A stretch of DNA of 64,000 nt from Flaccisagitta enflata. Taxonomy: Eukaryota. The notes beneath the pieces were generated by a model. The model made no database searches. It saw only the letters and a program-made list of their open reading frames with translations, and was not told the origin of the DNA. The translations under genes were made by a program, and so were the position numbers. Below are positions 8,483 to 50,589 of the stretch, one piece after another (the first letter of the stretch is position 1; every line of letters begins with the position of its first letter). The stretch is from contig OZ231126.1 in the NCBI GenBank assembly GCA_965153355.1, forward strand, positions 34,844,001 through 34,908,000. Direction: 5' to 3'.

Positions 8483-9018
8483 TAGGAGACGGCCGCACTA
8501 AGTTTAAACCTTTCCAATCATAGCTAAATCACCAATTTCAACACGGTTGAACAATTGGATGGGTTGGAATTGGGTTTAGGGGTAGGGTTGGGTTTAGGGG
8601 TAGGGTTGAGTTAAGGGGTAGGAATGGGTTTAGGGATAAGGTTAGGTTTAGGAGTAGGGTTGGGTTTAGGGGTAGGGTTGGGTTTAGAGGTAGGGTTGGG
8701 TTTAGGGGTAGGGTTGGGTTAAGGGGTAGGTTTGAGATTAGGGGTAGGGTCGGGCTTAAGGGTAGGGTTGGGCTTAGGGGTAGGGTAGTCTAGGGCTAGG
8801 GTTGAGATTAGGGGTAGGGTTGAGTTTAGGGGTAGGGTTGGGTTAAGGGGTAGGGTTGGGTTTAGGACTTTAGGGGTAGGGTTGGGTTTAGGGGTAGGGT
8901 TGGGTTTAGGGGTATGGTTGGGTTTAGGGGTAGGGATGTCACTAAAAATTCATTGTAAGAGTGGCATCGCATGAATAAATGCGAAAATGAACATTTACGT
9001 AACTGCGGCCGTCTCCTA
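8483..9018. mobile_element. TIR element carrying a telomere-like G-rich array
   Basis: 15-bp perfect IR TAGGAGACGGCCGCA; ~20 units of GGGTAGGGTTGGGTTTAG at ~8571-8935. Confidence 0.65.
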
Positions 9019-11444: not shown

Positions 11445-11774
11445 ATTTCAAAAATTCAAGACAATCTTAAAGCCAACAATATCAACATGAATAAAGAAAA
11501 ACAAGTCATGGACAAAAAAGTCTTGATAAAAGCAGTCTTGATAAAAGCACAACCTGAAATAAAGAGTGATCCGCCCTCAGACAAAAATGAGCCCATTGGT
11601 GTCCTCAAGGCAGGCAATGTTGGAGGTCAAGAGGATGAAGTTGATGATGAGACACAAGACAGCCAACTCTACAAGGAAAGAGAAATTGGCGACAGCGATT
11701 TTGTTGTTTTCAATTTACAGAAGACGTTTAAAAGTTTTAAAGCTGTAAACGGGCTGTCTTTTGTAGTACCCAAG
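11445..11774 (+). CDS. ABCA-subfamily transporter, internal exon 1 of window (linker and start of NBD)
   Basis: Acceptor tcttcttttgacag, donor AAG|gtaatt, phase 0-0. Translates ISKIQDNL...EDEVDDET...FVVFNLQKTFKSFKAVNGLSFVVPK; the end matches the ABCA 'L.K.Y...AV..LSF.V' motif preceding Walker A and joins in frame to the next exon. Confidence 0.85.
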
Positions 11775-12821: not shown

Positions 12822-15599
12822 CAGACGTTCTGTTATGCCCCCATATTCATAGGGGAAGGCTGGCTCGCGATTAAATTGGTACTTTATTGTATCAAAAAGC
12901 AATTTCAGGTCTTGTTAAGGATTTTCTACCTTCCCTGGAGTAACGGTTTTGGTTTTCCTATCATGTGTAATAGGTGGTTGTTGGGAAAATGTCCAATTTT
13001 GGTCACTTTGGCCTCAAATTTAGGCCACTTTGCCTTTAAAATCGAACCTAAAATCCATGAGATTATTAAACTAGAGCTCAAGAGCTAACCAGTGGTGCAA
13101 TCTGCATGTTTTTATCTTTATCCGTTTAGATTTGAGAGAGTTTTAAAGATGGGGCTTGAGAGGTTTTTTTTGCAGCATGAAATCTGGGGTTAATTTGGAC
13201 ATTTTTCACGTTTTTCACTATATCGAAGCTTTGGATGGACCAATCTTTAAAAGATTGGTGACCAAATTGAAGAGTTTTTGATGATGCTTCATGTCCTGGT
13301 TCTGGGAAAAAATTTTGATCGATATGGCCTCAAAAAATTTTTATTTACTCTCAAAGCAGGTGAAAAAAGCCAAATTTTCATGTCATTTAGGTTGTTTTTC
13401 ATTGAAAATTTAAGCCACTCACAAACTGAAAATTGACTTAAAATCCATGAGCAAATCAAACTACAGCTCAAGAGCTAATCAGTGGAGCAATCAGACATGT
13501 CTATTTGTTTTTGAATTTGGATTTTACAAAATTAAAGATATAAGGTATGGTGGAATGATGATTATTTTAGTCACTTTAGCTCTAAGTTTAAGCACGGTTT
13601 TGAAATCATGTAAATCCATGAGATTATTAAACTAGAGCTCAAAGGCTAACTAGTGGTACAATCCGCGTGTTTCCATCTTTTTTTGTAAAGATTTGAGAGG
13701 GTTTTAAAGATTGGGCTCATGAGAGCTTTTTTGCAACACAAAATGTGGGGAAAATTGGACATTTCTCACGTTTTTCACTATATCTCAACTTTGCATCAAC
13801 CGATTTTTAAAAAAATTGGAAGATTTTTTGATGCTCTAGCTTATCCTTGAAAAAGTTTTGATCAATTTGGCCTCCAAAAAATTTTATTGACTCTCAAAGC
13901 AGGTGTAAAAAGTCGAATTCTACTGTTATATAGAAAATTTTGGTTTTACCGATGCTGGGTACACAGCCATTAGGCAGTTGCTTGCGGGTAGGCAGGGTCA
14001 GAATGAAGATGGCTGGATACAAGGCACAGTTGGGCAGGGGCAGTAACACAGGAACTGTTCAAAAATTTTGCAAACCTACTGACGGACCGACGGACCAACA
14101 TGGCAAGGTGTAGAGTTGCACATCCGCGAATAAAAACCGCCTGAATGGCATTAGGTAAAACTTCAAACAAAGGCATAATTTCATGCATCAATCCATCTTT
14201 TTTTCTGATATATCTCTGAATAGCATTTTTTTCTTATTTCAAAGAAATAAGGAAATATTATTGATATTTTTGTAAAAAGAATCATTGAATCAATTAAGTA
14301 AGTTTTTTTTTCAATTTACACAATTTAATCTTATGTCTTCAGAATATGTTTAAATATGTTTTAAAAAAAATAGTAAAATTCACTATTTAGATTCTACAAT
14401 CAATTATGTAAAGGAAAATTATATGAAATTGTTCATCTTCACTGAAGATCAATTTTTGTCTTTGTAAGCACTTTGACATGAAACTCGACTTTTCACACCT
14501 GCTTTGAGAGTCAATAAAATTTTTTGGAGGCCAAATTGATCAAAATTTTTTCAAGGATAAGCTAGAGCATCAAAAAATCTTCCATTTGGTCACCAATTTT
14601 TTAAAAATCGGTTGATGCAAAGTTGAGATATAGTGAAAAACGTGAGAAATGTCCAATTTTCCCCACATTTATTTGTGTTGCAAAAAAGCTCTCATGAGCC
14701 CCATCTTTAAAAACCTCTCAAATCTTTTTACAAAAAGATGGAAACATGCGGATTGCATGACTAGTTAGCTCTTGAGCTCTAGTTTGACAATCTCATGGAT
14801 TTTACCTTCGATTTCAAAGGCAAAATGGCCAAACTTAGAGCTAAAAGTGACTAAAATAATGAAAAATCATCATTTCACCATACCCTTGTATCTTTGTGAA
14901 GTTTTGTAAAATCCAAATTCAGAAGCAAATAGACATGCTGATTGCACCACTGATTAGCTCTTGAGCTGTAGTTTGATTTGCTCATGAATTTCAAGTCAAT
15001 TTTCAGTTTGTAAGTGGCCTAATTTTTCAATGAAAAACAACCTAAATGACATGAAAATTTGACTTTTTTCACCTGCTTTGAGAGTAAATAAATTTTTTTT
15101 GAGGCCATATTGATCAAAATTTTTTCCAGAACCAGTTAGAGCATCAAAAACTCTTCAATTTGGTCACCAATTTTTACGATTTGTCTATCCAAAGCTGCGA
15201 TATAGTGAAAACTGAAAATGTCAAAATTGCCACTGAGATTGAAGCTGCAATATTCCCCTCAAGCCCTTTCATCTTTAAAATGCTCTCAAATCCCAACGAA
15301 TAAAGATAAAAACATGCGGATTGCACCACTGGTTAGCTCTTGAGCTCTAGTTTAATAATCTCATGGATTTTAGGTTTGATTTTAAAGGCGAAGTGGCCTA
15401 AATTTGAGGCCAAAGTGACCAAAATTGGACATTTTCCCAACTACCACCTATTACACATGATAGTAAAACCAAAACCGTTACTCCAGGGAAGGTAGAAAAT
15501 CCTTAACAAGACCTAAAATTACTTTTTGATACAATAAAGTACCAATTTAATCGCGAGCCGGCCTTCCCCTATGAATATGGGGGCATAACAGAACGTCTG
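12822..15599. mobile_element. Foldback element with ~1.1-kb inverted arms and 8-bp TSD (hAT or P/Galileo-like)
   Basis: CAGACGTTCTGTTATGCCCCC at both ends, TSD TTGATTAT; arms 12822-~13920 and ~14485-15599 with internal repeats. Confidence 0.85.
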
Positions 15600-16163
15600 T
15601 TGATTATTGTCCAAAGGGGGTTGATGCAAGGTCCAAAGTGGCATGGGCAACTCAAAAAAAAGTTATGTGAGGCCTCGGGGCTAGGAGGACTTATACTTAT
15701 GGATCTAGCAGCTGTCGTTATACCAAAGTTATCCTATTCGCACAAGTAATCTTCTTCAGAATGACTTTGAAATGTTTTTTTTCCTTCAAATGATAGAAAG
15801 TTTTCCTTTGCACACGTATAACTATAGTGACTGATGAGACAAGGTTGCAGGTTATTAACCTTGTGAAAGAAAGCATGAATTCGCTCTCTTTACTCTGTTT
15901 TGCAATGTTTTACTGTTTATGGCATTATGTAAATTAGCACAAACTGCCAAAATAATGTTTGTAGGGTCCAAGTATGTTGCCAAAATTTAAACGCTTGGAA
16001 AATGATCTGACAACAAAATTTTCAATTTTTTTATACAAAATTCTTTACCAACTGGACCGGTTGAAGAACTGTATTGGCTTCATGAAGTATCGCTAGAAAC
16101 CGTTTCTTTCTTCCATATGCATTGCAACGGCCACACATTCAGGAGATGTTTTCTTTTCTCCAG

Positions 16164-16251
16164 GGTTATCTATTTGGGTTGTTGGGCGTGAATGGAGCAG
16201 GAAAATCAACTACTTTCAAAATGCTTAATGGAGACATCACCATGACTAAAG
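16164..16251 (+). CDS. ABCA transporter exon 2 (Walker A)
   Basis: Acceptor ttcttttctccag, donor AAG|gtaggc, phase 0-1. [29 protein letters not shown](G), the typical [16 protein letters not shown] motif. Confidence 0.95.
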
Positions 16252-16763
16252 GTAGGCAAAGAAGTGTGTTCAACTTTTTGACGGTTCACAATCAAGATTT
16301 TTGGCTCATACGCCAAGAAGCATGACATCAGCTAGTATTTCAAATTTCAGGACAATCGCATCAATAGTTTAGAAGTTAGAGCCTTTTTCATACTTAAAAA
16401 GTAAAAGAAAAAAACGACGTTCTTTTTTTCCGTTCTTTCTTTGAACTCGCCCTCAATCAATTTTTTAAAATTTTTTGAAAAAAGTAAGGTTATAGGATTT
16501 TGGATATAGGCGAATTAAACAATTTCTTATCGATTGCACCTCACTTTTAAAAACCATTTTTCAGAAAAATATTTTGTGATTTTTTTTTCTAAGTAACTGA
16601 TGTGCGACACAAAATTTTCAAAGTTTTTTGAAAAAAAAAATGAAAATATAAGATTTTGGATCTCGGCAAATCAAACAATTCCCTATTGATTGCACCCCAC
16701 TTGTAAAAAACATTTTTCAAAAAAATATTTTAGGATTTTTTTTTTTTGAAGTCCCTGACGCGC

Positions 16764-19700
16764 CACAGGGTCTTTGAAGCTGGTATAACTTTTTAAAAAT
16801 GTTTAAACCTGGAGACTATGTTTTTTTTCACTATGTATATATTTCTGAGCAAATTCTGACCAAAAACGAAAAAATCGGTTGGGAAATTTTTGAAATATTT
16901 ATATTTTATACCTCCACAATGTACAATTTATTGAATTTTTCTATTTTTTTGAACAATCAACCTTGTTTTGCCCGTAACTTTTGAACGAATTGAGCTAGAA
17001 ATGCCAGATTGGTCCCATTTAAGAGATCTTTTCCAGATCTTTCCAACCGTCACCGATTTTTTGTAAATCCGCTCAAAAACAACTGAATTACAACCTGTCA
17101 AACATGACCAATTTTATGGGGATTTTGGACGTTTTTCCAGGCTATTGAAGTTTCCCATTTTTCAAGAGTTTCACTTGTTTTGCTTGGAACTTTTGAACGA
17201 TTAAAGCAAAAAATACCAGAGTGGTTCCTTTTTAAAGGATTTTTAAAGATTTTTGTCTCTGTCATCAATTTTTGTGTGAATCTGTTAACAAATGATACAC
17301 CGGGGTGCCGATTCTGTAAAGCTGCTGCGTAGCATGAAAATTCCCACCAAGGCTGCCGCACTTTCTTTACCAATGATATCCCTCTGTTTTCTAGCCCTGT
17401 GAAGCTTATTTGATGATGGTTTTACTTATATACAATCATTAAAACAGGTTTTACATCACATTAATCTGGTTTTTCATAAAATTTACATCCCACTTATGTT
17501 AAAGATGTCTTCTGTTATTCATCTTCTTCTCTCTTTTATCCTTACTTCCCATTTTCGATTTGTTTTCCCCACCATCTGCCACAACTGCCGCACTTGGTGG
17601 CTGTCCTGCCGCATAGCATTGCTACCCTGCTACCCTGAATCGGCACCCCGGATGATACGAGTTTTAACTTGTCAAATATGAGCAATATCCCACCGCCACC
17701 ACCTTTTTTCACAGTCTGATTCTTACTGAAGATGCATCTTTGAATCCTAACATCTGTAAATGAGGCTTTAAACGTCTATTTGTTCATCTGCAGTGGCAGC
17801 GGCAGATGAACAGGAAAAAGTTCTGTAAAACACAGGACTGTGGGACTTTTGTTAGCTTGTCTTTGTCTGTCAATTCATTTGCTCTCTAATCAGGCCACCC
17901 AGGTCTCAAGTCACGCCTCTAAAGACTTAAATCAGGTCTCTCAGGCCTCAAATCTGCCCTTTCAGTCCATAAATCAGACCTTACAAAACTCAAATCCAGC
18001 CTCTCATGCTTCAAACCTGCGCTCTCAGGCCTCAATTCAGCCCTCTCAGGCTGCAAATCTGCCCTCCTTGTCCTCAAAACATGCCTCTTGGGCCATAGAT
18101 AATTGCTCTCAGACCTCAAATCAACCCTCTAATTTGAGGCCTGAGAGGGTTTATTTGAAGCATGAGAGGGCAAATGGGAGTCTTTGACAGACTGATAAAG
18201 GTCTAGGAGGGTAAATTAGAGACCTGGAAGGCCGGACTTGAGGACTTAGAGGGCTGATTTGAGGTTAAAGATGGCTGATTTGAGGTCTAGAAGGGCCACT
18301 TTGAGGTGTGAGAGAGCTGGTTTGAGGCACAAGGGGCTGTTTTGGGCGTCCTAGAAAGGACTGATTTGAGGTTTGATAGGGCTGATCTGAGGCCTGAGAG
18401 GATGGATTTGAGGCCTAAGATGGGTGAATTGAGGTCTGGGACGTCTGAAAAGGCTAATTGGGCAGAGGCCACGAAGGGGACAAAGTCCTGTAGAACACAG
18501 GGGACTTTCTTTCATTCGTTACATCCGTTGACGTCCCTCTAGGCCTCCTGGGCTGAAATTTGCCTCCCTCTTGGGCTAAAATCCTGCCTCAGGCCTTAAA
18601 GCATCTCTCAGGCCACAAGAATCTGCCCTTCCCAGGCCTGAAATCTGCCTCCTCAGATTCAAAGCCTGAGAGGGCAGATTTCAGGCCTGAGAGGGCAGAT
18701 TTCAGGCCTGAGAGGGCCTGGGGGGTCGGACGAACAAAAATCCCCAGTGTCCCTACTGCCCTGCCTCTCATTCTAATTTACAACCATGCAACGGGTACAG
18801 CTGACCACATACTGCCCGTGGGCGACCTGTTTGGGGTATGAGACGGCTGATTTGTGGCATGACAGGGCTGCTCAGGGGCCTGAGAGAGTTGATTTGAGGT
18901 CAGAAAGGGCAGATCTAAAACCTTAGGTGGCTGATTTGAAGTCTGAGGAGGCTGACTTGAGGCCTGAGGGAGCTGACTTGAGGGCGGGGGGGGACAGAAT
19001 AGTCGCAAAAGAGTCAAATGGTCAGCGGTACCTGTTGCCCCAATGTGAGTATATGCGGATGTGTGATGCTGAGAGGGGCAGCAGCCCTGAAGGAGCCAAT
19101 GACCTATGCTTAATAAGCTTTGAGGCACTAGGCCTGAATTTGAGCAACATTAATGGAATTTGAGCCTTGAAGCTGTGATTTGAGCCTCAAAGCTGTGATT
19201 TGAGCCTCAAAGCTGTGATATGAGCCTCAAAGCATTGATTAGAGCCTTAAACCTGTGATTTAAGCCTTGTGGCTGGGATGTGAGCCTGGAAGCTGGGATG
19301 TGAGCTTTGAAGCTGGGATGTGAGTCTTGATGCTGGGATGTGAGTCTTGATGCTGGGATGTGAGTCTTGAGGCTGGGATTTGAGTCTTGAGGCTGGGATT
19401 TGAGTCTTGAGGCTGGGATTTGAACCTGAAGGATGGGATTTGAGCTTCAAAGATAGGCTTTGATCCTCGAGAATGGGAGTTCAGCCCCAAGGCTAGGATT
19501 TGGGCCTCAAGACTGGGATTTGGGCCTCAAGACTGGGATTTGAACCTCAATACTGGGATTTGAGCCTTGAGGCTGGAATTTGAGCCTTGAGGCTGGATTT
19601 TGGGCTTTGAAGCCAGGGGGGGGACGGAGAAGGAGGAGAAGAAGAAGAAAATCCCATCCCATATGTGTGAAAGCATAGGTCATCAGCCCCTTCAGGGCCG

Positions 19701-20844
19701 CTGCTCAAAAGTGCCCTCTGTGGAATCATAGGTCAATCAGTCAGCCAAGGGCAATATGTGGTCAGCGATACCTCTTGCCCTGCTTTGCATGATTGTGAAT
19801 TGGAGTGAGAGGAAGCAGGGCAGCGCTCCAAAGGGGACAAAGTCCTGTAGAACACAGGGGGACTCTCGTTCATCCATCCGTTTGTCCTGAGGGCTGATAT
19901 TAGGGCCAAGAGAACTGTTAATAGGTCTGGAAAGGCTGATTTCTGGCCTAAGAGAGTATATTTAAGGTCTGAATGGGCAGATTTCAGGCCTGAGATACCT
20001 GATTAAAGTCTTTAGAGGCATGATTTGAGACCTGGGGGGCCTGAGATGCCTGCTAGGGGGGACAAAAGAATGAACAAATAAATTGACAGACAAAGACAAG
20101 CTAACAAAAGTCCCATTGTCCTTCGTTTTACGGGACTTTGTCCCCTTTGAGGCCGCTGCCACTGCAGATGAACAAATAGACATGTAAAGCCTCCTATAGA
20201 GATGGTAGGATCCAAGGATGCATCTATAGTTACCAATAGGATCAGAATGTGAAAAAAGGTGGGGGTGGTGGTAGTGGTGGGATACTGCTCATATTTGACT
20301 TCAATGACTTGTCAAAACTCATCTCATTTGTTGATAGATTCCCACAAAAATTGACGACATGACAAAAATCTTTAAAAATCCTTTAAAAAGGGACCAATCT
20401 GGTATTTTTAGCTTTATTCGTTCAGAAGTTCTAAGCAAAACAAGTGAAAAGGGGAAACTTCACTAGGCTAATAAAACATCCATAGTCCCCATGAAATTAA
20501 TCATGTTTGACAGGTTATAACTCAATTATTTTTGAGCGGATTTACAAAAAATTGGTGACCGTTATAAAGATCTGGAAAAGATCTCTTAAATGGGACCAAT
20601 CTGGCATTTCTAGCTCAATTCGTTCAAAAGATACGGGCAAAACAAAGTAGATTGTCCAAAAAATGGAAAAATTCAATGACATGTATCTTTGGGAGGTATA
20701 AAATGTGAGTATTTCAAAAATTTCCCAACCGATTCATTTGTTTTTGGTCAGAATTTGCTCAGAAATACATATTTAATAAAAAAAAAAACAGTCCCCAGGC
20801 TTAAACATTTTTAAAAAGTTATACCAACTTCAGAAGACCCTGTG
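16764..20844. mobile_element. Foldback TIR element with CAC...GTG ends and 4-bp TSD (Chapaev-like)
   Basis: CACAGGGTCT...AGACCCTGTG, inverted arms several hundred bp long, TSD GCGC splitting a tandem unit of the host hAT-like element. Confidence 0.75.
17300..17651. mobile_element. hAT-like MITE nested in the 16764-20844 element
   Basis: TIR CCGGGGTGCCGATTC; 8-bp flanks ATGATACA/ATGATACG. Confidence 0.7.
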
Positions 20845-21905
20845 GCGCGACACAAAAATTTTCAAAGTTTTTTGTAAAAAAGTGAAAATACAAGATTTTG
20901 GAACTAGGCAAATCAAACAATTTCCTATTGATTGCACCCCACTTTTGAAAACCATTTTTAAAAAAAATATTTTGTAATTTTTTTTTCAAAGTCCCTGACG
21001 TGCGACACAAAAATTTTTAAGTTTTTTGTAAAAAAGTGAAAATACAAGATTTTGGATCTAGGCAAATCAAACAATTTCCTATTAATTGCACCCCACTTTT
21101 TTTTTCAAAAAAAAAAATTTCAATAAGGGCTTTTTTAGGGGCCCTTAGGGGCCCCTAAAAAGAAAATGATGTTTAGTTAAAGCCGATGGCGAGAGAAATC
21201 GAATCTCCGTCAAACAAAACCAAGAACACCTAGATCAGTGGTGATTTGCGCCTTCAATGACTCTCAACACTTCAGGGGGCGAGTTTTTTTCAAAACGAGA
21301 TGCGCATTCAGCCTTAGAAATTTTTAGTTGTTGCTTGTTCCCTACTAAAGGTAGTAAGGGAAAGCTTAAACAAGGCCGGATACACGGCTACCCTAGTCGC
21401 GTGCGGGTGGGCAGGGGCAATGATGAAATTGACCAACCAAGCAGTTGGGCAGGAGCAGTAACCCCAAAACCGCCCGTAAACGCCAAAAAAAGCTAAGCGT
21501 GACCGACCGACCGACGGACCGACGGACAGAGCGGGTTGTAGAGTCGCGTGCACGCGACTAAAAATTTTTTTGGAATAAATCATATAGTTGAAATTCTATA
21601 GTCATACACATATGGTTATATAGATGAAATTATATAGTTGAAAAAGACTTTATTTAGCGTTTCTAAAAGTTTAAATTCAATGAAATATTAGCAGGCCTGT
21701 ATATAGTGGCATATTCCCCCTCCCCCCGCAGGGAGGAGAAAGAAATCAAAGGATTTGGAAATGGGGAAGAAAATCACAGGGTAGAAAAAACAAAAACAGA
21801 AAAATATAGAAGATGTTACACTTTTGACAGTGCTATAATGTAATATTTAGTCACCACTATCGGTGAACGGATACCCGATTTTATCTTTCCGTCGGTTTGT
21901 TAATA

Positions 21906-22513
21906 ACAGGGTGTGCAAAATTATCCGCACAAGGCAGTTTTATTTTCAAAAACCCTGTAGAAAAAAATGATTTTTGTATGCCTAAAAGATAGATATGAAA
22001 ATTTATCTCTTTTAGCATTCAAAACCAAAATTCACAGAGAACAACAAAGTCAGAAACAAAACTTTTCAGGTAAATTTGATTCACTTAAAACACTCCTTTA
22101 AAAGAATCATAAAAAAACAACCAGAAATCTATTGTTAGTTTTTCTTGCTCTGTAGGCTTAGTTTATTTGCATTTCTGAGCTCCATTGATGTTGATTTAAC
22201 TTACCTCCCTCAGCATAGTGTGTGTCAAGCTAAAAGTGTCACTATGGAGTGGTTACAAATACAAAAATCTATGATTTTGTGACATATTTTGCGTATAAAA
22301 TAAAATCCAGTCAAAATCAAAATTTTTGCTTCAAATCATTTAACTCCCATAGTGACAAGGAATTTAGAAAAGACCTACAATCAATTCTTGCTTCTAGTAT
22401 GATTAACTGAGGTACTCAGGCTCAAATTTCATAGTCCTGGGTCACTTCTAAGTATGGTTTTCTTTCTATGGTACCAATAGAGGCGGCTAATTGCCGTAGG
22501 AAAAAAGTTGTAA

Positions 22514-22581
<68 letters not shown>

Positions 22582-23367
22582 GGACAGACAGACAGATAGA
22601 CAGACAGAAGGTGAGAAAGAGACAGAGAGAGAAACAGAGAAAACCATGTAACACGGGGTTTTCATTGGGGACAGGTGGACAGGGGCATCCAACCCCCATT
22701 CACACCCCAACCCCCACACACAAGCATCAAGACCACATTTTTTTCCACTCGGACGGACAGACGGACCAACAGACTGATGGATGGACTGACAGACAGACAG
22801 ACAGACAGAGGGGGAGAAAGAGACAGAGAGAGATTAAGAGAAAAACATGTAACACGGGGTTTTTGTTGGGGACAGGTGGACAGGAGCATCCAACCCCCAT
22901 TCACACCTCAACCCCCACACACAAGCATCAGACCACATTTTTACCACTTGGACGGACAGACGGACCAACAGACTGATGGATGGACGGACAGACAAAGCCT
23001 CTCATAGAGTCCCAGTTGATGAGAAAGGACTGTGCTGCTAGGATGCACAATTATCACCTGGGACATTTCAAAGTTTAAATAGACTCAGATCTCATTTTTA
23101 GGAGAAAAGCGAAAAATAAAAAAGATTCAAAAATCATAGCTCCAAAACTATTGATCGCCGGTTTCTGCTTAGCGTCATCTGAAGAAAGAGGAGGAGTAGC
23201 TCTTTCATAGCTATTAATTTCATGCGTAGTCTCCACTCTGCCCCCAAAATGCAGCTTTCTCAAAGCGCTTCATGAGAAAAAAACTCTGCAGGACTCAAAA
23301 AGACCGAAGGAAACTTCGTTCCTTCGACTTTTTTCCAAACAAGTGCGGATAATTTTGCACACCCTGT
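21906..23367. mobile_element. TA-flanked TIR element (Tc1/mariner-like)
   Basis: TIR ACAGGGTGTGCAAAATTATCCGCAC; contains a (GA)n tract and a ~200-bp duplication; related end at ~41516. Confidence 0.7.
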
Positions 23368-23540
23368 TAGCTGTCACTCGGCTTATCCGTGACTACTAAT
23401 TGATGCAATTACAATCAATTATGGCTAATGACCCATCTCCTCTTCCTTTTCCTCCTCTTCCTCCTCCTAGCAGAAAGTCGCCACTAAACCTTTCTCTAAG
23501 TCTATCTATTTATCATCCTGTCTGTCAATCTGTCTGTCTG

Positions 23541-23625
<85 letters not shown>

Positions 23626-24192
23626 ATCTCTATCTCTCTTTCTCTCTTGTTTTCTCTTTTAAGTTGCGGACACGCAACTCTATAAGAGGCTTTAACCATC
23701 CGTTGGTCTATCCATTGGTTTGTCGGTCTGTCTGTGAACACATGTCAAATAGTCGCAAAAGCGTTAGATGGTTAGCGGTACCCGTGACCTGCCCTAGTAG
23801 GTTGTGCTTGAAGTTGAAGGGGAAGCAGGGCAGCGGCCCTGAAGGGGTCAATGATCTATCTTTGACACATATGTGGAATTTTATCCTTCTCCTCCTCCTC
23901 CAAAAACGCCTCCCAGCTTTGGGCCAAATTCTAGTCCGAGACCCAAATCCCAGGCCCTGGCCAAATCTATCCGAAAGGCCCAAATCAACCTCAAGGCCTA
24001 AATTCTACAACTGGGGCCAAAATCTGTGTGTGAGGCCCAAGTCTCATCATTAGCTCAAACCCTGACAAATAGGCTCAGGGTTATATCCACCTCCAGACTG
24101 TCTCGGGACCAGAATTTGGGCCACTCAAAGCTGAAGAGGCAGGTGCAGTTGTAGGAGGAGGAGGAGGAGAGGAAGGAGAAGAAAATTTTCTG

Positions 24193-25884
24193 CAGTGAGA
24201 ATCAAGAACTGGGTAACTGGAGAAATATCTGTGGCTGTTAAGATTCATGATCATTTTGCACATTTTATGGTGTACTATGTTGTTAAGGTTTTAGACCATT
24301 GCTAAATTCATTTTTTTTGATAAAAATTTTTTCAGTTTTGCTGATTTTGACCACAGAAATTACACTAAAAATAAATTCTTTCATGTGTATATTAGTTAGA
24401 TAGTTTAACATAAATTTCATTTTCATTGGGATTACAGCAATTTTGTAACTGTAACCTCAAAACTCAAAAAACACAAAAAGTGGAATATTTCCTAAGGTTT
24501 TCAATAATATAACCTGATTTTTTGGTGTGGTAGTAGTTTTAGAATTCACTAATAAGTGTGCAAAATTTTAGCTCTTAAAATAAATTTTTGATACAGTTAT
24601 GAAGGACAATTTTCCCTTCAAATTTTTTTTTTCAAATGAAAAATCCTGCCAATTGTTATTTTTTGATAAAATTGATAACAAATTAAAAGTTTGTAAAAAA
24701 GATTTTGAACTAGCACTCTTGGAAAAAAAAATTTTCTCAAAAATTGCGAAAATGACCAATTTTTTGAGGTAGAATAAAAATTGTTCCTGTCATCCGATCA
24801 TCTTCATTTTTAGTGGAGTTGTTACCTGTTATCTACTTTTACTTCACCTAAAATTTGAGCTTACTGCGGTTGTGGAAATATTGACGTTCAAAGTTACTTT
24901 GTCAGAGCAAAATCAGCAAATTGGCATTTTAGCTATTTTGAGCTTTATAAAGTATGTTTTAACACACACCTCCATTTTAGCTGAAGTTACTCATTTTTAT
25001 GGTTAAAAATTTCACACTTGTCAGATCAAACATTTATAGTTATGGTGATCCAAAGTTTCAAATGCAAAATTTCCAATCAAATCTTAGTTGGAAAAATCAG
25101 CAAAAAATTTTCAAAAAAAGGTCTCCAAAGGGGGGGTCCAAAAAATTAGAAACTTTTCTATTTTCCCAACTCAAAAACCCTGATGAAAACTTTTTCATTT
25201 TTAAGTACCCCAGTAAAATCAGGCCCAGCTAGAGCAGTTTCAAGGGACTGGACTTCTTTATACATTGGAAACAGACTTCCGTTAGAGCCAATATTCTTGT
25301 CACATAACAGAACATATATACACATACACACACACATACACACACACACACACACACGCACACACAGATAGACAGACACATATAGACAGACAGACCGACA
25401 GAGACAGATGGACAGACAGGCAGATAGACAGGCAAAGACAAATGACAGACAGAAATACCGATAGAAACTGATATACAAGCAGTCCCTTAGAGATAAAACG
25501 GTCAGAAAAAAAGATTGTATGGTACACAGACACTTGAAATAGATACACCAGCCATTCATGTATCGATTACTCCCGAAACAAAATGGAAATGAACAAACGA
25601 TAGATAACAAGCAATGATTAAGGAAAAAGGGATATGAATTATGAGACAAATTTTGACTGAGATGACCCACTGTAAAGAAAGCTGCGATGCGAGAAGGTGA
25701 AATGAAAAAAAGGGAAACACCTGCTTAGCTTTTCATGGATTTTGAGTCGATTCAACCATCCTTTTGAACTAGTGAATTCAGAGATCACAATTTTCTAAGC
25801 GCATTAATATGGTTGCACTATTGATAAAGCATATGCACTTGTCGTCATCATCTCTCTTTCTTTTTCTCTCTCTTTCTTTCTCTC

Positions 25885-25921
<37 letters not shown>

Positions 25922-27221
25922 TCTCTTCTTTTTCCCCCTCCTCCTCATACCGCTTACATTCCGCCGATAATTTCGAATTGATGCAGATCATCGCCAATCC
26001 TGAATTACCATTTTTCCTCAGTCAGGGCTAATTTCAGGTCAGGGCGGAAATAGTCAACCTTCCATGGCCGAAAAACTTGCGTTCAAGCCGAAATTTCTGC
26101 TACAGGTGGAACCGGTTTAGACGGAATTTTCTAAAAAGAAAACTAAAGGGAATGAGTTGGGACTTAAGCTTATCATGCATTGGAGGCGGGTTTCCGCTCG
26201 TAACGGGTCCGTTGGAGCGGGATTCTACTGTAGTTTTTGTTGAAAAATTTGCATTTTTTGAAACTTTGGACCACCATAAATGTAAAACGGCTTAACTGAC
26301 AAGTGTGAAATTTTGGAATATGAATATTTGCATAAACATGAGTAACTTCAGCCAAAATGGAGGTGTGTGAAGGAAAATATACAATTTTATGCAAGCTCAA
26401 AAATAGCCAAAATGCCAATTTTGCTTGTTTTTGCTCTGACAAAGTAACTTTGAACGTCAATATCTCCACAACCGTTAGTCGCAGTGAGCTCAAATTTTAG
26501 GTGAAGTTAGGGTAGATAACAGGTAACAACTCCACCAAAATTGAAGATGATCGGATGACAGGAACAGTTTTTATTCAACTTCAAAAAATGGGTCATTTTC
26601 ACAAATTTTGAGAAAAAAATTTTTTTTCTAAGAGGGCTAGTTCAAAATTTTTTTTAGAAACTCTTAATTTGTTATTTATTTTATCAAAAAAAAACAATTA
26701 ACAAATTTTTTTATTTAAAAAAAAATTTTTTGACCAAAAAACGTCCTACATTGCATTTTGTGAAAAATTTAAAATTTCATAACTATATCAAAAATTCATT
26801 TTAAGAACTGAAATTTTGCACACTTATTAGTGAATCCTAAAACTACTACCACACCTAAAATCAAGGGATTTTGTTGGAAATCTTAGGAAATATCCCACTT
26901 TTTGTGTTTTTTGAGTTTTGGGTGCCATAGCCACAAAAATTGGCGGAAAATCCCCAACAAAAAATGAAATTTGTGTTAACGCATCTAACTAACATACATA
27001 TGAAAGATTTTTTTTTAGTGTGATTTTTGTGGTCAAAATCAGCCAAAAACAAAAAAAAAATTTTTGGACAAAAAAAATGAATTTGTTGGAATGGCTCCAA
27101 AACCTTAAACAACATAGTGCACCTATAGGTGCATTTTGTGGTAAAAAATTTGATCATGAATCCTAGCCGTTTTACAGATATGGCTTCCCTCCAGTTACCC
27201 AGTTCTTTGATTCTCGTACTG
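24193..27221. mobile_element. Foldback element with ~0.9-kb arms (Tc1/mariner-like CAGT end)
   Basis: 24193-~25075 inverted against ~26245-27221; splits a family-2 Helentron-like element whose tail resumes at 27222. Confidence 0.75.
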
Positions 27222-27455
27222 TATGTGAAAGCATAGGTCATTGACCCCTTCGGGGCCGCTGCCCAAAAGTGGGAAAATGAGCGTTTTAGATACTTGTTTG
27301 AATGTATGGATGGGAGTTGAATGTGGATGGTAGTTGGATGCCCCTGCCCACCCGTCCACAAATATATTGTGACCCAGCGTCACTTGTTTCATTATTCTCT
27401 CTCATTTCTTTGTGTTGGGTTTGACTGCTGCCATGACAAACCTCATCAACCATTG

Positions 27456-28054
27456 CACATAGATCTGTGAGCATATCATACCAAGACAAAACTATAAGGC
27501 AGTACCTAGAAATGATAGCTATGGTATAAACATGTCCTCTAGGTTTTTTAGATCACATCTATATAGGGTTTTGCCTCCGCCCTAATTCATCTAAGGACAT
27601 TTTTTTTGCTCAGAAAGTCATTAGGTTTGCTATTTTGAAGGCGCGAAATTGACAAAATCTTTTTCAGTTTAGATTGGAAATTTGCGGGGTTTTTTTGTTG
27701 GTCCTTCAAATCTTGGAGCAGGGTTAACAAATTTCACACAAGTCGTTTTCAATCCACCCTGAAGCTTTCCCAAAAAGTTCGTGTCTTCCCTTGCATTCTC
27801 AGTATCATTTTTGATGTCTAGAAAAGTAACAAATAAAATCAAAAACACATTTTTTGCAACATTTAATTTTGAGCGAAGTAATTAACTTCAACTTCAAGGA
27901 GGAAAATGAGGCTTTGGATGAGCTAGGGCGGGGGTAAAACCATATATTTTCTTGCTTTCAGTAAGCAACTGTACCAGTTTCTGCCCTTGTTATGAGTCCA
28001 AAGTGCTGCCTTAATTTTTCTTGTCCTGAGGTGCTGTGCTTTCAGACCATAGTG
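27456..28054 (-). mobile_element. Transib-like MITE, copy 1
   Basis: CACATAG...CATAGTG ends; 5-bp flanks CATTG/CATTC; reverse complement of 51461-52084. Confidence 0.75.
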
Positions 28055-30775
28055 CATTCCCTCGGCTCACCTACTATCTCTTACTGGTATTCTACAATTT
28101 ATCAGTGGAACTGAGTTTGTCAAAATGAAGCGCGACTCTAGCATGAAGCTATTTCGTTTTTTTTAACAACATTAGTGCTAAAAATTGATTTATCACTGCA
28201 GTAAATTCTATTCTTTTTTTCATCCATTTCTATGACAACCATCCATTTTACAGTAGAAATTTCTCTAGTGGAATACTCAAGCTAGGTAGGTAGGATGAAA
28301 GCAAAACTTATGATATGTGCATCCGTCATGTTTAATGATCATTTGCTAAATCTATTTTGCATTAAAAGTAAATAAAAATGAAATATATAAAAACTGTAAA
28401 GAAATAAAAAAAAATATGCAACAGTGGTAAAATCTGAATTTAAAAAATGAAAAACTAAAAAAATATGTCTTCTTTAAAACTGCTTTTGTTATGCTTGGAA
28501 GATCAGCAATTTTCAAACATGCAAACAAAATGTCACTTTGTTAAAAAGAATCATTGGGGAAAAGGTCCCACACTCGTTGCCTAGATAACCTCCTTATTCA
28601 CTAACTGATAGGTTCATCAGATCTTTTTTTCATAATTTGTTTTTTCCTAAACGGAAAAGAGAAAAGTTAGGAACGCTGTCCTAATGGTGAAGAACAATAT
28701 GCTAATTTGGAATTTTAATTGTGAGCTCGATTGGGCAAGTATTTCTAATTTTAAAGCGCCGGGACTAAATACAGAAAGGAAACTGAATTCATTATCTTTT
28801 TATTTCAGTGAATTGATATACTTCTTATAACTGAAAAGTCAGTTATAGCATTCAAGCTGAACCTATATTACAAATGCAGTGTAAGGTGAACTAAATTGGA
28901 GCCCATTTTTGATAGCCAGAAGTATATAATCTTAGCACTATTTTTATACTATTTCAACCAAAATATTACTATATAGGGAGTATATGGGAAGAAAAGAGTC
29001 AAATGTGGTTCAGCCACTGAGGGAAAAATCAAAGGACAGGAGCAGGAAAAATGAGGAGTTGTGTTATACACTGAATATTAGTTAAGTTCATGTTTTTAGT
29101 CGCGTGCCACGCGACTCTACACCCCGCTTTGTCGGTCTGTTGGTTCATCTGTTGGTCCGTCTGTTGGTTTGTTGGTCCCTCCGTCACACTTAACTTTTTT
29201 GTGTTTTTTTTTTTTTTTTGGTCTTTGGCCTTACTGCTCCAGCCCAAATGAAAAAGTGACCTCTAATACAGCCGCTGCCCACCCGCATGCGACTGGGGTA
29301 GCCGTGTATCCGGCCTTGTTATACTTCAGACAGTGATTGTTAGACAAAAATTGAGCTTTAACGTTAATCTTCGTTCATTTCCGCTGGCTTTCTTCTGACT
29401 CGATAACCGAAGTTGTCTTGCAGAGTGCTATTGTCCATACAAGACTTTCAAGCCACTTCTAACCACCTACATTTTAAGTTAACATTGATTGGTTCATAAA
29501 GGGTTACATCCTGCGATAAAGGATCTCAAAGGAACGACCGATTCCATTTTCAATTGACAAACTTGATTAATTTTCAATGTATATATTAACAAGGCCAACA
29601 CCTATCAGTCGCGTACGGGACATAGATAAGTTAAGATGATTTTTATAGACTCCAGATGACTTAAAATGACTCAAGACGACTTTAAATAACTTAAAAAGAC
29701 ATAAAATGACCGACCTATAAAATGACTTTGACCTATTTGACAAAAGTGACTTAACATATCTTAGAATGACTTAGAATGACTTAGAATGACTTAGAATGAC
29801 TTAGAATGACTAGAAATAACTTAAAGCATAATAAAAAAGTATAGTGTGATGGACGGACCAACGGGTTCTCGAATGTCGAGTCGCGTGCACGCGACTTAAA
29901 AAATAAAGAAGATTTTCAAAATTGCGTGAGTTTCAATGAAAAAGAAAGATGCATGGTCACGAATTTAGTCATGAAAGTGAAAAATGCAGAACATGTGACG
30001 CGTTTCACTATTTAGCTCATCAAGAGACGTCTGTAACAGCATAAAAATGAGGAAATTAGTGTAAAATGTAGAAAACAAAATACTAAAACGAAAATGGTGG
30101 ATATACACTGTCATTAAAGAAGCCTTAACTTCATAAATGATCCAGTATCAAGAGACAGAGTTCATCCATTAGAATTTGAAGAAGAATCAATTTGAGAGAC
30201 CTCTCTTAGCCTTGATCTTCAAATCTTAGCCTCCAAGCTCAAAACCAACACCACTTGCTTCAATCCCAACTGTAGTTGTTTAGACGTCTTGCCTTGCAAT
30301 CTGGCCTGTGTAACTGCCATAATGCAGTTATTCGTCATCTTTACAATTTTTGTTTGCTTGTATTTATTACCACATTCTATGTGTTGCAAATGAAAGATCC
30401 ATCATCATCAGCAAAAACTTGTTTCACTGCAAGAGCTTAGGATTGGGGTAATACCCTTCACTTCCACAATTTTTTAGGTCAAGCGTTTTTTCAATTTTCA
30501 AGCAGAAGAAAAGACAGAAAATAATTGTTGACGGTTTCCTCGGTAAGCTCTTTTATTGCTCTTTTTCTTTATTTTTTTCGGCAGACTTTTCTATGTATAG
30601 TTTTCTTAAAAACTCATAGAAGAGCTATGTTTACCAAAAAAGTTGAGGCTCAGAATACCATGGAAACCACCGGCCAAAACTATCTCCAATGAAAATGACT
30701 GTGGAAGAAATTTCTCTCACAACTACAGCATTGATAACAAAGTGTCTAGATCAAGTTCAAATTGATTACGCAATA

Positions 30776-32148
30776 GGCAATTTCTCCTATAAACTGGGCC
30801 GGCCAAAATCAAGCACCTGATTGAGTCAACATTCAAAAAAATAACATAATTCAATGATAGTTGCATCTATCAGCTTGAAATTTTGGTTGCAGGCTCAGAA
30901 TTTGATACTCTTTCAAGTCATAATGAAAAAATCACTTGAAGTCTTGAACTGTGTTCAATTATATAAATTTTTGTGAGAAACAGTGCGACATAGTGTGAGA
31001 AAGTGTTAACTCGATAGGACACTTTCTTAAAAGAATCGATATCTCCGGCTAGAAATGACATAAAGTTCTGAAATTTGGCATGTAACCTGGGTTATGTCTT
31101 TACTTGACAAGGGGAAAAAAATCTTAACATCATACTTAAAAATATATTTTTGTTAATGTGTTGTATATTACTGTATCAAGATGAGATATTTATTCATTTT
31201 TAACAAATCAACTATAAACGAAATTTTTGCATAGTAAATGTTCATCAGTCACCATCAAATTTTTGATACTTCTTTAGGGATAGCAATGGTACAAAAATGA
31301 CCTATTGTTGGAAAGGCTTGACAATTTTTTGATGTTTTTATCATAGTAGATATGAAGTGTGACACAAGTGTGACAGGGAAAATAGGCTGTTTTGGCTCTA
31401 CTTTTGGCCACCTAACCTATAAAAATCATGAGTCTGAAGGATGTATGTTGAGCACTTTGTCCCAAGGGATGTCTAAGAACAGCTTTCATAGTGCACTTCA
31501 AGCGCATTTGGATGAGTCCTGACATAGAGTCAAAAACATTAGCAAACAGTGCTCTTTTGTTTATTCTGTAGCATAGAACCCTTATGATTAAAGTCTGTAC
31601 AGGTAGCCCTCTACATTGAACAGACAAAAGGTCTTATTTTGGGGATATGGATGGGGTACAGTGAGTCTGTTTTTTGAAAGAAAAAATGCTGAAAAAAATG
31701 CTTCATACACGTTTTATTCAGTTACAGCTCCCTGGCAGCAAGGATTTTTCTCATTTTTGCCTTAAATGCTTATCATTATGTTGTATCACTAAAAAACAAG
31801 TGGTGGTGATACCAGTTGGCCTATTTTACAAAATAATGAAGATCAATGTTGAGATGGTCATTTCTATCCTTTTACATAATCTTGCAGCCTAATCACCACT
31901 GGCTACTAGAAACCCTAAATTGCCAATTGGAGTTCAAATGTGAAGTATAATAGTAGCTAGGGGGAGTGTCATTATGAGTTTTCTTTGAAAAAATGAGCAA
32001 TTTTGGCTAAAAACCTGGAAAACCTATTATTTATTGATTTTGCTGTTGTGCACCCTTCATCATTGAAAGAATGATTGGTGAAAAAAAAACTGTTTTTTTG
32101 CCGCCAAATCATGTTTTTCAGCCGGCCCACTTTATAGGAGAAATTGCC
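30776..32148. mobile_element. TIR element with 4-bp TSD, superfamily uncertain
   Basis: 28-bp TIR GGCAATTTCTCCTATAAASTGGGCCGGC; AATA on both flanks. Confidence 0.7.
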
Positions 32149-32508
32149 AATAAGATTTCACTTCAATGACGTAAGTGGATTATGGAGTGCTTAAAAAATA
32201 CCCTCTCTTCAAAAAACTCAAAATATGCCCGGCCTATTATAGAATCAATGAACAAGCATTTCTTGTTTCTACTAACTCTTTTTAGGTGCGCCAACGCACC
32301 TCATTATTTGGCTGTGTCCGCTGGTCGGTCAGTCGGTAACGCAAACGTTTCACAATTCGGCTCACCCATGTGGTCTACTTGGCCTTGTTCATTTTATGTT
32401 TTCCGTTTTTGTCAAATGTGTATCCAACATCTGATGTTGTCCAACAGTAGGTAGTTAGCTGACGCCTCTGGTGTCGCCACTTATACATCAAAATTACTGT
32501 TTTCTCAG

Positions 32509-32616
32509 GAAATGTTTGGCTTGGGAAACGTTTTTCCCTTAGGAAGGACTTGTTTGCCATACAATCAAGAATGGGCTATTGCCCGCAATTTGATGCAATC
32601 CTGCCACTCATGACAG
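32509..32616 (+). CDS. ABCA transporter exon 3 (Q-loop)
   Basis: Acceptor ttttctcag, donor CAG|gtacgt, phase 1-1. (G)NVWLGKRFSLRKDLFAIQSRMGYCPQFDAILPLMT(G). Not shown in the ORF track in this frame. Confidence 0.95.
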
Positions 32617-32793
32617 GTACGTGTGTTCGGATATGCGACTGATCACATGAGTTTTTAGTCATGGACACGCGACTCTACACCTTGCCGTGTCAGTTTGTCC
32701 GTCCGTCCAAAACATTTCTAAAATTGCGTGCAGTTTTTGCATCATCGCACAAAGGGCCACGGATTGCGCTAGATGGCTCCTTGGGTATATGGG

Positions 32794-33431
32794 TGTAAAG
32801 TAGCTGCAGTGAGATGGAAATATCCTGACCGACGGCCCTACTGATACGACAACATAATATCACGATGTAACATTGTATTCTGAGAAATGGGAAATGGGGA
32901 TGGGAGAGAGATTAAAGAAAACGATAATGATGATGATGATAAGATGTGATTGCAATTTAACGTCTTTGTCTTCTGTCTTTGTCGTCTATCTTTGTCTTCT
33001 GTCTTTGTCTTCTGTCTTTGTCTTCTGTCTTTGTCGTCTGTCTTTGTCTCCTGTCTTTGTCTCCTGTCTTAGTCTTCTGTCTTTGTCTTCCTCCGTCATC
33101 ATCCTTGTTGTTCCTCTGTCATGTCTCTGTCAGTCCTTTATCATGTCTCACCAAAAACGGTCTTGGACTGACGGACACGTCGCCAGTATATTTCCTCTGA
33201 CTGATTTCTTCTTCTCCGCAGATCTATTTTCTTCTCTGCCAATTTTCTATTTTCTTCTCTGTAAATCTATTCTCTTCTCTGGATCCGCTCCGAGCGTCTA
33301 TCGCCGGCTTAATGGCTAAGAGCTTTGCGTAGCTCTATTTGAAAATCTCTCTCTCTGCAACTACTGTCTAATCCAGGACCGATTGGTCTTATGTCCAGTA
33401 ATGCTCCGACAGAGGCTAACCTTCGTTTACA
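32794..33431 (-). repeat. 3' LTR of the BEL/Pao element
   Basis: 638 bp, TG...CA, highly similar to 38680-39311 with scattered substitutions and indels; internal TCTTCTGTCTTTG-type repeats. Confidence 0.92.
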
Positions 33432-34923
33432 CCCCCGTCGAAACCTTGTTTCTTTCAGAATGTTAGCCGAGTCCCATGGCTTGTCTATCTATATTACATC
33501 TTTGCATAGATGGATGTTTTATCTCCTCCCATCTTGAAACAATGAGTGAAGCTTAAAAAAACATTTATTTTTTAAGCCAGTATCCCACAGCTTATCGAGT
33601 TTCTCACTTTGTCGTAATTGCAATTATCGACTGACGCCGACTAATCTCCTGTTCTCTTTTCATTTATTTATTTTTTTTGTCAGCAAAAAATATCCATCTG
33701 TCTTGACTTGGCTTCCTTCGCTTATCTATCAAATATCGCCATAGCGCTAAGCTGGGAATCCAAGAGCTTGATATTGCGTCAGCTAATTTGCATATTGCTG
33801 TAGTCGCTGTTAGTGATCTTCATCACTAAGCCCGTGATTGAAACGTAATTTGACTTTGTATAAATTGATATGGTCTGCTCACGCAGTCTTGGACATCTTC
33901 CTCTCCGTTGTTTACTTATCATCTTCTTTCTCTTTGCTGCACTGCAAAAAGGATTATCTTGCCTATCCTGGCATTGACATGTCTTGTCACAATCCTGTCT
34001 CATCGCATAGCATATTCTGTCAATGGCATAATCTGTCACTGGTGTGATCTGTCACCGGCGTAGTCTGTCACCGGCTTACAAGGTAAACGTAATGGATCTC
34101 TGCAAACGCGGAATGGATAATTGAACCTCTGCAAACGCAGAATAAGCCTAGTTTCTATAAATGCCAAATGAACAAATATAACATCGAACCACGTCATTGA
34201 GTCCAGTCCTGATCACTAATCTTCTTCCTTTCCTCCGATCTTCCAAAGGGCAACCGCCGCCCTAGCAGTATTTCATTCCCCCGCCGTATTGGCAACCATT
34301 AGGGAGCAAATTCCTTATGTTCTATTCCGCATCTATGCGACATAAAAACATTTAATTTCTTATTGTCGCTGTATAATGAAGCAAATGCCTAGTGTGCATT
34401 TGCGCTGCTACCACTTTCAACCGAGATTATGGTCGAGTAACACAAAATTATTCGAATAACATCCCACACGCTAATCATGTGTTTCGTCCTTTCTTCTCCC
34501 TCTGCTTTAGTCTTCTCTTCTTCCGTTTCCTTTCTCCTCTCTCTCTTCTTCTGTCCGTCTTTCTTTCTCTCTTGCGGCTTTGCGTCGCTCAAACTGAAGG
34601 TATTGACCTTTTATTCTTCCTTCAGTCACGTGACTCCTTGTGACGTCACTTTCTCCGCTTGCGCTGCCTGGAGAGTTTTCAGCATCTCCTTCATCAATCG
34701 TTAATGTAATGCACTTTATTTTTCTTTGTCGCATTTCCTCATGGGTTCTGTCGCTTTCTTACCCCGCCGTCTTTGCTCATCTTGATCTTTTGCTCATTTT
34801 CAGCAAAAATAATTTGCCGCCTCTCCTATTGGAGCATCCTTGTCTGTTTAACAACAAACATCATACAGTGACCAATGAATGCCTATTTTGTGCTTTGCAC
34901 GCCATCGCTAATGAAAGTAACAC

Positions 34924-36856: not shown

Positions 36857-37379
36857 AACATCGAATGCGTTTCTCTTCTGTGCCTAGGGCCACGGCAGCC
36901 ATATTCATATGTCTTTTACGAAATGGGATCAAATTTACGTTTTTACCACCGATGTCAACTTAGTCGATGATTCTTTGCTCAATTTCTAGAACGAGCACTC
37001 TTGAAAGATGAAAACGTCATTTAAGTAGTGCAGAATAGACCAATAATAGCAAGGAAACAGATACAGTTTGTGCACAGAGACCTTTCAACATTACGCTTAC
37101 TCGTTCATTATTCACTATCATATCCATTCATTGGTTCACTCTTTCATTCATCTTACTACTAGTTCATTCAATCATCCTTTATTTGTTGCTCTTTGATCAA
37201 TCGGTTTCATCGTTTTTGTCAAGATCGCCCTCGTCATTTTAATCATTGTCCTCGTTGTCGTTGTTGTCGTCGGTTTGTCGTTGTCGTTGTTGTGGTCAAA
37301 GTCATTGTTGTCGTTGTTGTCCCCGGTGTGTCGTTGTCGTCGTTGTCATCGGTGTTTCATCGTTGGTGTGTCGTCATCG

Positions 37380-37423
<44 letters not shown>

Positions 37424-37619
37424 ATTATCAGTTTGATACGTTCAACCTCAACAGACTTTCATTGCAGAACAAGCGTCAGACATAAAAAAAAAGAAATGCT
37501 AAAAAAAAGTAAGAAAGAAATCAAAATCTGTTCAAACTTTTTAATCTTTTTCATTTTCTGTACGAGGCAATCGTAGAGATTGGTTTAAACAACGTATACC
37601 ATGTAAGGAGACATTTTTT

Positions 37620-38259
37620 TTATTCTACTTTGTCAATATGCCCGCCGTGGGGCATTTCCGCTTTCATCTTGAATTGGCCGTCTTTCTTCCTGGGCAGCGG
37701 CGAAGGCAGCTTCTTGAAACTTGGCTCTGTCGTTGACACTGGCAATGGGGATCTCAGATCTTGCCCCTTTTTTACTGGTGTCTTCTTTCCCATTCCCTTG
37801 GGCCAAGGCATCTGCTTTGTGGCTTTAGACCGGGTTGCGTAACCGTTCTCTTCGTCAATATCTTTTGGGATTCCTTCCCCCCTCTTCAAAGCCTTTCAAC
37901 TTTTTTCCAGCTCCCCGGGGTCCCTTTCCCCGACCTTTGTTCGGGTACGCCTCGTTTGCTTCCATCTGTGTTTGTTCTAGTCCCTCTGTGTCGAGACCGA
38001 CCCTCTTTGCCCTATTCTGTACTCTTGCCACGCCTTTCATCTCCTTGTACAAAGTGGCCTTGGCCTTATTTGCCAGATCCTTTTCTCTGTTTTTGCCTGT
38101 TTCCGTTGCTTGTTCTCTCGTCTTTTTCACACTGTCCATCTTTTTCTTGAGGCTCGTGATTGTCGCGTTCATCTCCTGCGCTATTTTCTGTTTCTCCGTT
38201 TCCTTCTCCTTTTCTTTGTGCGCCTTTGGCGACTTTCCCTCTTTTGTTTTATCGGGCAT
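37620..38259 (-). pseudogene. Lys-rich accessory ORF upstream of gag (one frameshift), unknown function
   Basis: ATG-initiated ORF 38259-37855 overlaps ORF 37889-37620; both are K/E/G-rich with similar composition and would join to about 210 aa. Confidence 0.5.
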
Positions 38260-47904: not shown

Positions 47905-47980
<76 letters not shown>

Positions 47981-50539: not shown

Positions 50540-50589
50540 CAAAGTCGATTTCATCATTTTATTTTCTGACATTGGGCTGATGCAATGTT

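Follow-up and report, generated by a model that had tools for sequence, protein, structure and literature searches.

The window analysed here is a 64,000-nucleotide stretch of the Flaccisagitta enflata genome (assembly GCA_965153355.1, contig OZ231126.1, positions 34,844,001 to 34,908,000 of the forward strand), in which a transposon with terminal inverted repeats (TIRs) adjoins the end of exon 2 of an ABCA-type gene. Positions are counted from the first letter of the window, and a slash in a motif marks a splice boundary. Exon 2 (16164-16251, plus strand, 88 nucleotides) encodes the Walker A of nucleotide-binding domain 2 and ends in phase 1. The open reading frame (ORF) around it (16086-16322) gave a Pfam ABC_tran match (E=6.9e-7), and its homologues (137 of 395 candidates at E<=1e-3) are ABCA proteins, the best named ones being ABCA3-like. 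A tblastn search with ten ABCA homologues placed the window exons in nucleotide-binding domain 2.

The exon structure was derived from transcript-like proteins. A protein search with the exon 2 ORF found no identical protein, and the ORF around exon 3 retrieved protein P0001, whose 90% cluster includes P0173 (382 residues, on a 1337-nucleotide contig) and P0174 (246 residues). Because the P0173 contig holds an uninterrupted 382-residue frame in 1337 nucleotides and spans exons more than 40 kb apart, it presumably represents a spliced message. Exon boundaries were found by a brute-force search for GT(GC)-AG borders, and a single six-exon model with GT-AG at all five introns reproduced 248 of 248 residues of P0173 (residues 1-248). 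Its exons, all on the plus strand, lie at 11538-11774, 16164-16251, 32509-32616 (108 nucleotides, acceptor ttttctcag/), 47352-47450, 50704-50817 and 52420-52517; all six are intact and 100% identical to P0173. In tblastn searches, P0173 matched exon 1 at 100% over 79 residues (11538-11774) and P0174 matched it from 11487 with a five-residue indel, which places exon 1 of the window at 11487-11774, with the donor AAG/GTAATT. Exon 2 is 100% identical to both proteins, which read ...DITMTKGNVWLGKRF... across the junction of exons 2 and 3. The intron between 16251 and 32509 is 16,257 nucleotides long. No match to P0173 residues 249-382 was found in the window by tblastn at >=70% identity.

Exon 2 ends with ...ACTAAAG at 16251, followed by GTAGGC, and the plus strand reads ...CCATGACTAAAG/GTAGGCAAAGAAG... 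with the boundary after 16251. The focal TIR element extends from 16253 to 21344 (TAGGC...CCCTA). At its far end, CCCTA at 21340-21344 is followed by CTAAAGGTAGTAAGG, the plus strand reading ...GTTGCTTGTTCCCTA/CTAAAGGTAGTAAGGG... with the boundary, here that of the element, after 21344. A second, uninterrupted copy of 936 bp lies inverted at 57602-58537 (minus strand) between perfect 8-bp direct repeats, CACTCGTC, at 57594-57601 and 58538-58545. The two copies were aligned by blastn within the window (16252-16521 with 58538-58269, 91.1% over 270 nucleotides; 20834-21344 with 58116-57602, 92.9% over 518 nucleotides), and their termini were compared base by base. In the 40 nucleotides just inside the termini, 38 and 37 bases are identical between the copies; in the 40 just outside, 12 are identical at either end. 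The homology thus stops exactly at TAGGC... and ...CCCTA. Comparison with the second copy shows an interruption of the focal element from 16764 to 20844, which leaves on the plus strand a left part (16253-16763, terminus TAGGCAAAG...) and a right part (20845-21344, terminus ...GTTCCCTA), the latter with internal tandem units of ~154 bp.

The flanks of the focal element repeat the 7 nucleotides CTAAAGG, at 16246-16252 (the last six bases of the exon and the +1 G of the intron) and at 21345-21351, where the T at 21352 would make an eighth, both on the plus strand. The full direct repeat is 10 nucleotides long (16246-16255 equals 21345-21354), because the first three bases of the element (TAG) equal positions +2 to +4 of the old intron. 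Since the ends of the element are fixed independently by the second copy, a 7-nucleotide match of the flanks is unlikely to be due to chance (~6e-5 for one given pair). The second copy has an 8-bp duplication, and two indistinguishable readings may account for the difference: either the element lost its first T and the target was CTAAAGGT, or it lost its last A and the target was ACTAAAGG. On either reading, the +1 G of the present donor would come from the duplication and +3 to +6 (AGGC) from the element. The pre-insertion junction is reconstructed as ...ATGACTAAAG/GTAGTAAGG, that is, CTAAAG followed by GTAGTAAGGG. A remnant of the old intron start, with the old donor GTAGTAAGG..., occupies 21351-21368 (plus strand), up to the next repeat. 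An earlier note on this DNA had described a transposon that landed inside the donor of this intron, with TAGGC after ...ACTAAAG/G as the terminus of the element, CCCTA followed by the duplicated CTAAAG-GTAGTA, the old donor displaced 5.1 kb downstream to 21351 behind an AG, and a duplication of 7 bp here as opposed to 8 bp at the other copy. All of this agrees with the sequence.

Donor use and removal of the element

Joining 16251 to 32509 gives 248 of 248 residues of P0173, and therefore the donor at 16252 yields the mature message. This donor, GTAGGC (16252-16257, plus strand), lies on the only GT-AG path that gives P0173, in agreement with the proposal in the earlier note that the upstream copy of the duplication and the end of the element together form the donor in use. 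Its G comes from the duplication, its T is shared or ambiguous, and AGGC comes from the element. The further statement that the TAGG end "rescued" splicing goes too far. The element end does complete a working donor, but the +1 G, and perhaps the +2 T, come from the duplication, and +2 to +4 are unchanged. The new and old donors are identical from +1 to +4 and differ at +5 (T to G) and +6 (A to C). The other five donors of the gene (GTAATT, GTACGT, GTCGTT, GTTATT and GTTTGA) are very degenerate; hardly anything past the GT seems to be needed in this gene, and "rescue" is too strong a word. Donor strength was estimated by a crude measure, the pairing energy of the duplex with U1, which is -9.2 kcal/mol for the new donor, -7.5 for the old donor and -5.0 to -9.8 for the other five real donors. 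The intron has 756 GT sites, of which only 0.7% pair as well as the new donor. By this measure the donor lost no strength through the insertion and perhaps gained some. The element has TAGG at each terminus, and either orientation would have given G/TAGG.

We consider it likely that the element is a tolerated intronic TIR insertion in the existing donor of an ABCA gene, spliced in one ordinary step to 32509. A hAT-like non-autonomous TIR transposon would have inserted at or next to +1/+2 of an existing intron, and the staggered cut would have duplicated the last six bases of the exon together with the donor G, possibly also the T. The upstream copy of the duplication, still attached to exon 2, would then have read into the element as AAG/GTAGGC, which keeps the old donor through +4 and has a consensus G at +5. 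This donor would pair with the acceptor at 32508/32509 in a single reaction, and the 16.3-kb intron would thus begin with 5.1 kb of element. Later, a second element would have nested inside the first, and the old donor, in the second copy of the duplication downstream, would persist as a relic deep in the intron. The anatomy of the locus and the join of exons 2 and 3 in the mature message are established; we infer both the order of these events and the removal in one step. Signs of age are the divergence between the arms of the nested element (86.5% alike) and that between the two copies of the outer element (91-93% alike).

Several observations weigh against this reading. The contig data contained no junction reads at the nucleotide level, so that the join of exons 2 and 3 is read from the predicted proteins, and the mature message fits removal in one step and in two steps equally well. 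The contigs that encode P0173 and P0174 could in principle stem from insertion-free alleles or from a processed copy. The focal duplication is 7 bp long, not 8, with one base lost or shared, and the ends of the family are defined by two copies only, both in the window. A scan of public metagenome contigs gave 0 matches to the last 22 nucleotides of exon 2, with which empty sites, complementary DNA and insertion-bearing contigs were sought, and 0 matches to a 22-nucleotide end of the element. Sequencing runs that contain 13000-22000 comprise two DNA runs of 'organism A', marine metagenomes and four metatranscriptomes. The contigs of two RNA runs (X13 and X14) and two DNA runs (X3 and X1) were aligned to 15500-33500 at 90% likeness; high-copy repeats dominate these alignments, and the 90% level probably worsened the flooding. 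One X3 contig, from an independent marine metagenome (record 26), covers 16052-16277 with 4 other letters and runs 25 nucleotides into the element. As 25 letters fall short of the 31 required by the bridging rule, this contig is a weak hint that the insertion is present in an independent sample.

These observations bear on a different explanation, in which the insertion allele is splicing-defective or null and still segregates, while correct transcripts come from empty alleles. No read ties the insertion to a spliced message, and the five-residue indel of P0174 in exon 1 implies that at least one transcript came from another haplotype. Such an allele would, however, be expected neither to look as old as this element does, with the divergent nested arms and 7-9% divergence from the second copy, nor to retain six intact exons that are 100% identical to P0173. 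The new donor is as good as the old one or better by the U1 measure, and the independent metagenome contig runs into the element, if only for 25 letters. We regard a null allele as very unlikely and infer that insertion-bearing alleles yield the sampled transcripts.

The candidate recursive site at the far end

At the far end of the element, the duplication places an AG directly before the old GT. The resulting AG/GT (21349-21352, plus strand), with AAG as acceptor and GTAGTA as the old donor, is a candidate zero-length recursive site. The earlier note had proposed that 16252-21350 might be excised as an intron. In two steps, the donor at 16252 would first be joined to the AAG at 21348-21350, and the regenerated AAAG/GTAGTA would then be spliced again to 32509, in the manner of an introner. 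The logic of this proposal is correct, as the excision would restore the exact pre-insertion donor. Its T/C-rich tail is also present, with 15 pyrimidines in the 20 nucleotides before the AG, compared with 12-13 at the five real acceptors of the gene. The old donor is in the range of working donors (-7.5 kcal/mol), and the intron is long (16.3 kb).

Other features of the site speak against its use. The same messenger RNA is obtained in one step, and the second step is unneeded. The AAG had already been described as a weak acceptor in the earlier note, which fits the gene itself: its real acceptors are CAG in four cases and TAG in the fifth. A TAG at 21325-21327, 23 nucleotides upstream, would lie between a distant branch point and the AAG and would compete with it. 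The focal acceptor has C at -6, T at -5 and AA at -4 to -3. Drosophila ratchet points, as described in 10.1101/006163, have a prominent pyrimidine tract with TT at -5/-6, a TT found in 196 of 197 cases and lacking at the focal site. The ten recursive motifs of Sibley et al. for vertebrates, as quoted in 10.1101/2024.12.11.627982, include AG/GTAGG and leave out AG/GTAGT, the focal motif. The same preprint puts recursive splicing at under 1-2% of long vertebrate introns. The intron contains 52 AG/GT tetramers against 58.8 expected from base composition. By pyrimidine content the focal site ranks fourth among the 52, behind three sites with 16 of 20 (two with TAG and one with GAG). Neither a joint from 16251 to 21351 nor any other joint from 16251 was among the joints listed, which come from contigs only and are dominated by repeats; this says nothing about absence. 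On sequence grounds, recursive removal is possible but unlikely, and we give the two-step route a small probability.

The relic donor could take part in splicing in another way. Together with the TAG at 21325-21327 it might define a 23-nucleotide, frame-shifting pseudo-exon (21328-21350), included in a minor isoform that is degraded. An AG is present at 21326-21327, and 97.8% of the intron's GT sites are weaker than the donor at 21351. The pyrimidine tract before the TAG is poor, however, an exon of 23 nucleotides would be very short, and both P0173 and P0174 join exon 2 straight to exon 3. We therefore consider this pseudo-exon extremely unlikely.

Element class and repeat context

The focal 5.1 kb is a composite of a miniature inverted-repeat transposable element (MITE) of ~1 kb and a nested foldback-like element of 4,081 bp. 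The MITE, which has no coding capacity, is made up in part of the ~154-bp tandem units. Its two copies in the window have unrelated flanks (12 of 40 bases alike outside) and different duplications. In four runs, contigs pile up over the element to a high summed depth, which suggests that there are many more copies, although this depth is not a copy count. PMC3942097 describes hAT-superfamily MITEs as having 8-bp duplications and short TIRs of 10-25 bp. Like such MITEs, the second copy has an 8-bp duplication, and the element is non-coding, contains internal tandem repeats and appears from contig depth to be present in many copies. Its terminal inverted repeat, TAGG...CCTA, is short as well, but only the four bases TAGG are perfect; among the 14 terminal bases, 7 pair in the focal copy and 8 in the second copy. 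No hAT transposase or autonomous partner was found among the ORFs examined. Eight-bp duplications are also made by other transposon superfamilies. A Pfam search gave no match at E<=0.001 for 39 ORFs of >=100 residues, chosen from 60 listed ORFs, and another showed no transposase family among 150 plus-strand ORFs. With so short an inverted repeat and no transposase to go with it, the assignment as a hAT-like MITE is tentative.

The nested element (16764-20844) has the termini CACAGGG...CCCTGTG and was delimited by blastn of its arms, its junctions and a tandem-repeat scan. It carries inverted arms of ~540 bp that are 86.5% alike (16756-17295 with 20852-20324), sits between the two copies of a duplicated 4-bp host sequence, GCGC, and contains arrays of 20-21-bp tandem repeats. 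Relatives of its arms lie at 52830-53236 and 56581-56988. Its termini may be CACTA/Chapaev-like.

Repeats within the window make up 44.5% of its length and 53.6% of the intron between exons 2 and 3. The nearest of them lies 1 nucleotide from the focal donor. At the ten remaining splice-site flanks in the six-exon model none comes closer than 71 nucleotides, which makes the focal position exceptional within the gene. In a genome filled with insertions, some insertions into donors are expected, and those that keep the GT through the duplication can survive. Contig alignments have loose ends at 21368/21369 in four of four runs, so another high-copy repeat starts 18 nucleotides after the G of the old donor. 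This is a very high-copy repeat of ~196 bp (21369-21564), with loose ends at 21368/9 and 21564 and a summed depth in the millions in X1. Sequence similar to it adjoins the second MITE copy, near 58600-58720.

Some further observations concern the gene and its surroundings. The last 27 nucleotides of intron 1 (16137-16163) are in frame with exon 2 and weakly resemble the homologous ABCA segment, into which tblastn alignments extend. The message takes the segment from exon 1 (...LSFVVPK), and this resemblance is probably due to chance. The start at 16143 given by these extensions was rejected; P0173 and P0174 read ...FVVPK/GYLF..., which fits 16164. P0001 was not taken to be the product of this gene: it is identical over exon 3, but compared with the window at 47327-52517 it has 78%, 95% and 88% identity over exons 4-6. 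It is a close paralogue, a divergent allele or a protein of a sister species, and is also transcribed. In exon 1 of the window (11487-11550) the five residues VLIKA are tandemly duplicated, and P0174 lacks them; this 15-nucleotide indel distinguishes haplotypes or individuals. Between 11000 and 33500, neither an Rfam nor a tRNA scan gave a match. Inside intron 3, a stretch of ~3 kb (35231-38367) stays open over long distances on either strand, in several frames, and has no Pfam match; it is probably a compositionally biased or satellite-like repeat. Upstream of exon 1, an ORF at 8551-8790 (plus strand) matches the Pfam Collagen triple-helix repeat (E=6.4e-7, 29.5 bits, cut-off 27.2); it may represent either a simple repeat of the GXY type or part of some other gene or element.

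Relation to introners, stwintrons and ratchet points

Introners, which Gozashti et al. 2022 (PMC9860276) present as non-autonomous DNA transposons that create introns, carry one splice site and co-opt the other from the duplication; PMC12403724 refers to their description by Huff et al. 2016. The focal element resembles introners as portrayed in PMC9860276 in that the duplication holds core splice-site bases and the end of the element completes the signal. GT...AG bounds are present, at 16252-16253 and 21349-21350, and the source organism is marine, the habitat for which introner enrichment is reported in the same text. In contrast to introners, no new intron arose, as the element entered an existing one. 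That the intron was already there follows from the distance of 16 kb to exon 3, where the coding sequence resumes at 32509, and from the bases next to the right copy of the duplication (21352-21368), which do not continue the protein. Removal of exactly the element is also unneeded for a correct messenger RNA.

In the fungal [D1,2] stwintrons described in PMC12403724, the internal intron sits between G1 and U2 of the donor that belongs to the external one. Here too, an intron-like segment lies in or at a donor, and its removal would regenerate the donor for a second reaction. In the stwintrons of that paper, however, a single step leaves an extra G and two steps are obligatory, whereas here one step gives the correct message; those stwintrons also lack a target-site duplication, which the focal element has. 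As the direct join from 16251 to 32509 reproduces P0173, nothing obliges the focal intron to be spliced twice, and it does not qualify as a stwintron. The zero-nucleotide ratchet points of Drosophila and vertebrates, as outlined in PMC8605326 and 10.1101/006163, share with the focal site an AG/GT behind pyrimidines in a long intron. They differ from it in that the focal acceptor is AAG with C at -6, GTAGT is off the quoted motif list, and the focal AG/GT is owed to the duplication rather than to selection.

Keyword searches of open-access text gave no precedent for a transposon in a donor that regenerates a recursive site. Conceivably, though with low probability, a transposon duplication spanning AG/GT at a donor could plant a recursive site at the far end, the element being removed first as an intron within an intron. 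If so, an animal would have a ratchet point born of a transposon, or a nested intron of the stwintron kind, and introner-type elements would have a way to persist harmlessly within existing introns; use of the far-end AG/GT would mean that recursive splice sites can arise in one step. The locus as we read it, with the element tolerated and spliced out in a single step, is a tidy case of the introner principle, an ordinary tolerated insertion and not a new mechanism. It offers a clean illustration from nature of how a 5' splice site can take a direct insertion unharmed: the invariant donor base or bases lie in the duplication that the transposase makes, and the TAGG terminus, in either orientation, completes a usable donor. 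The logic of introners is thereby seen in an animal gene, at an intron that already existed and in a genome saturated with repeats.

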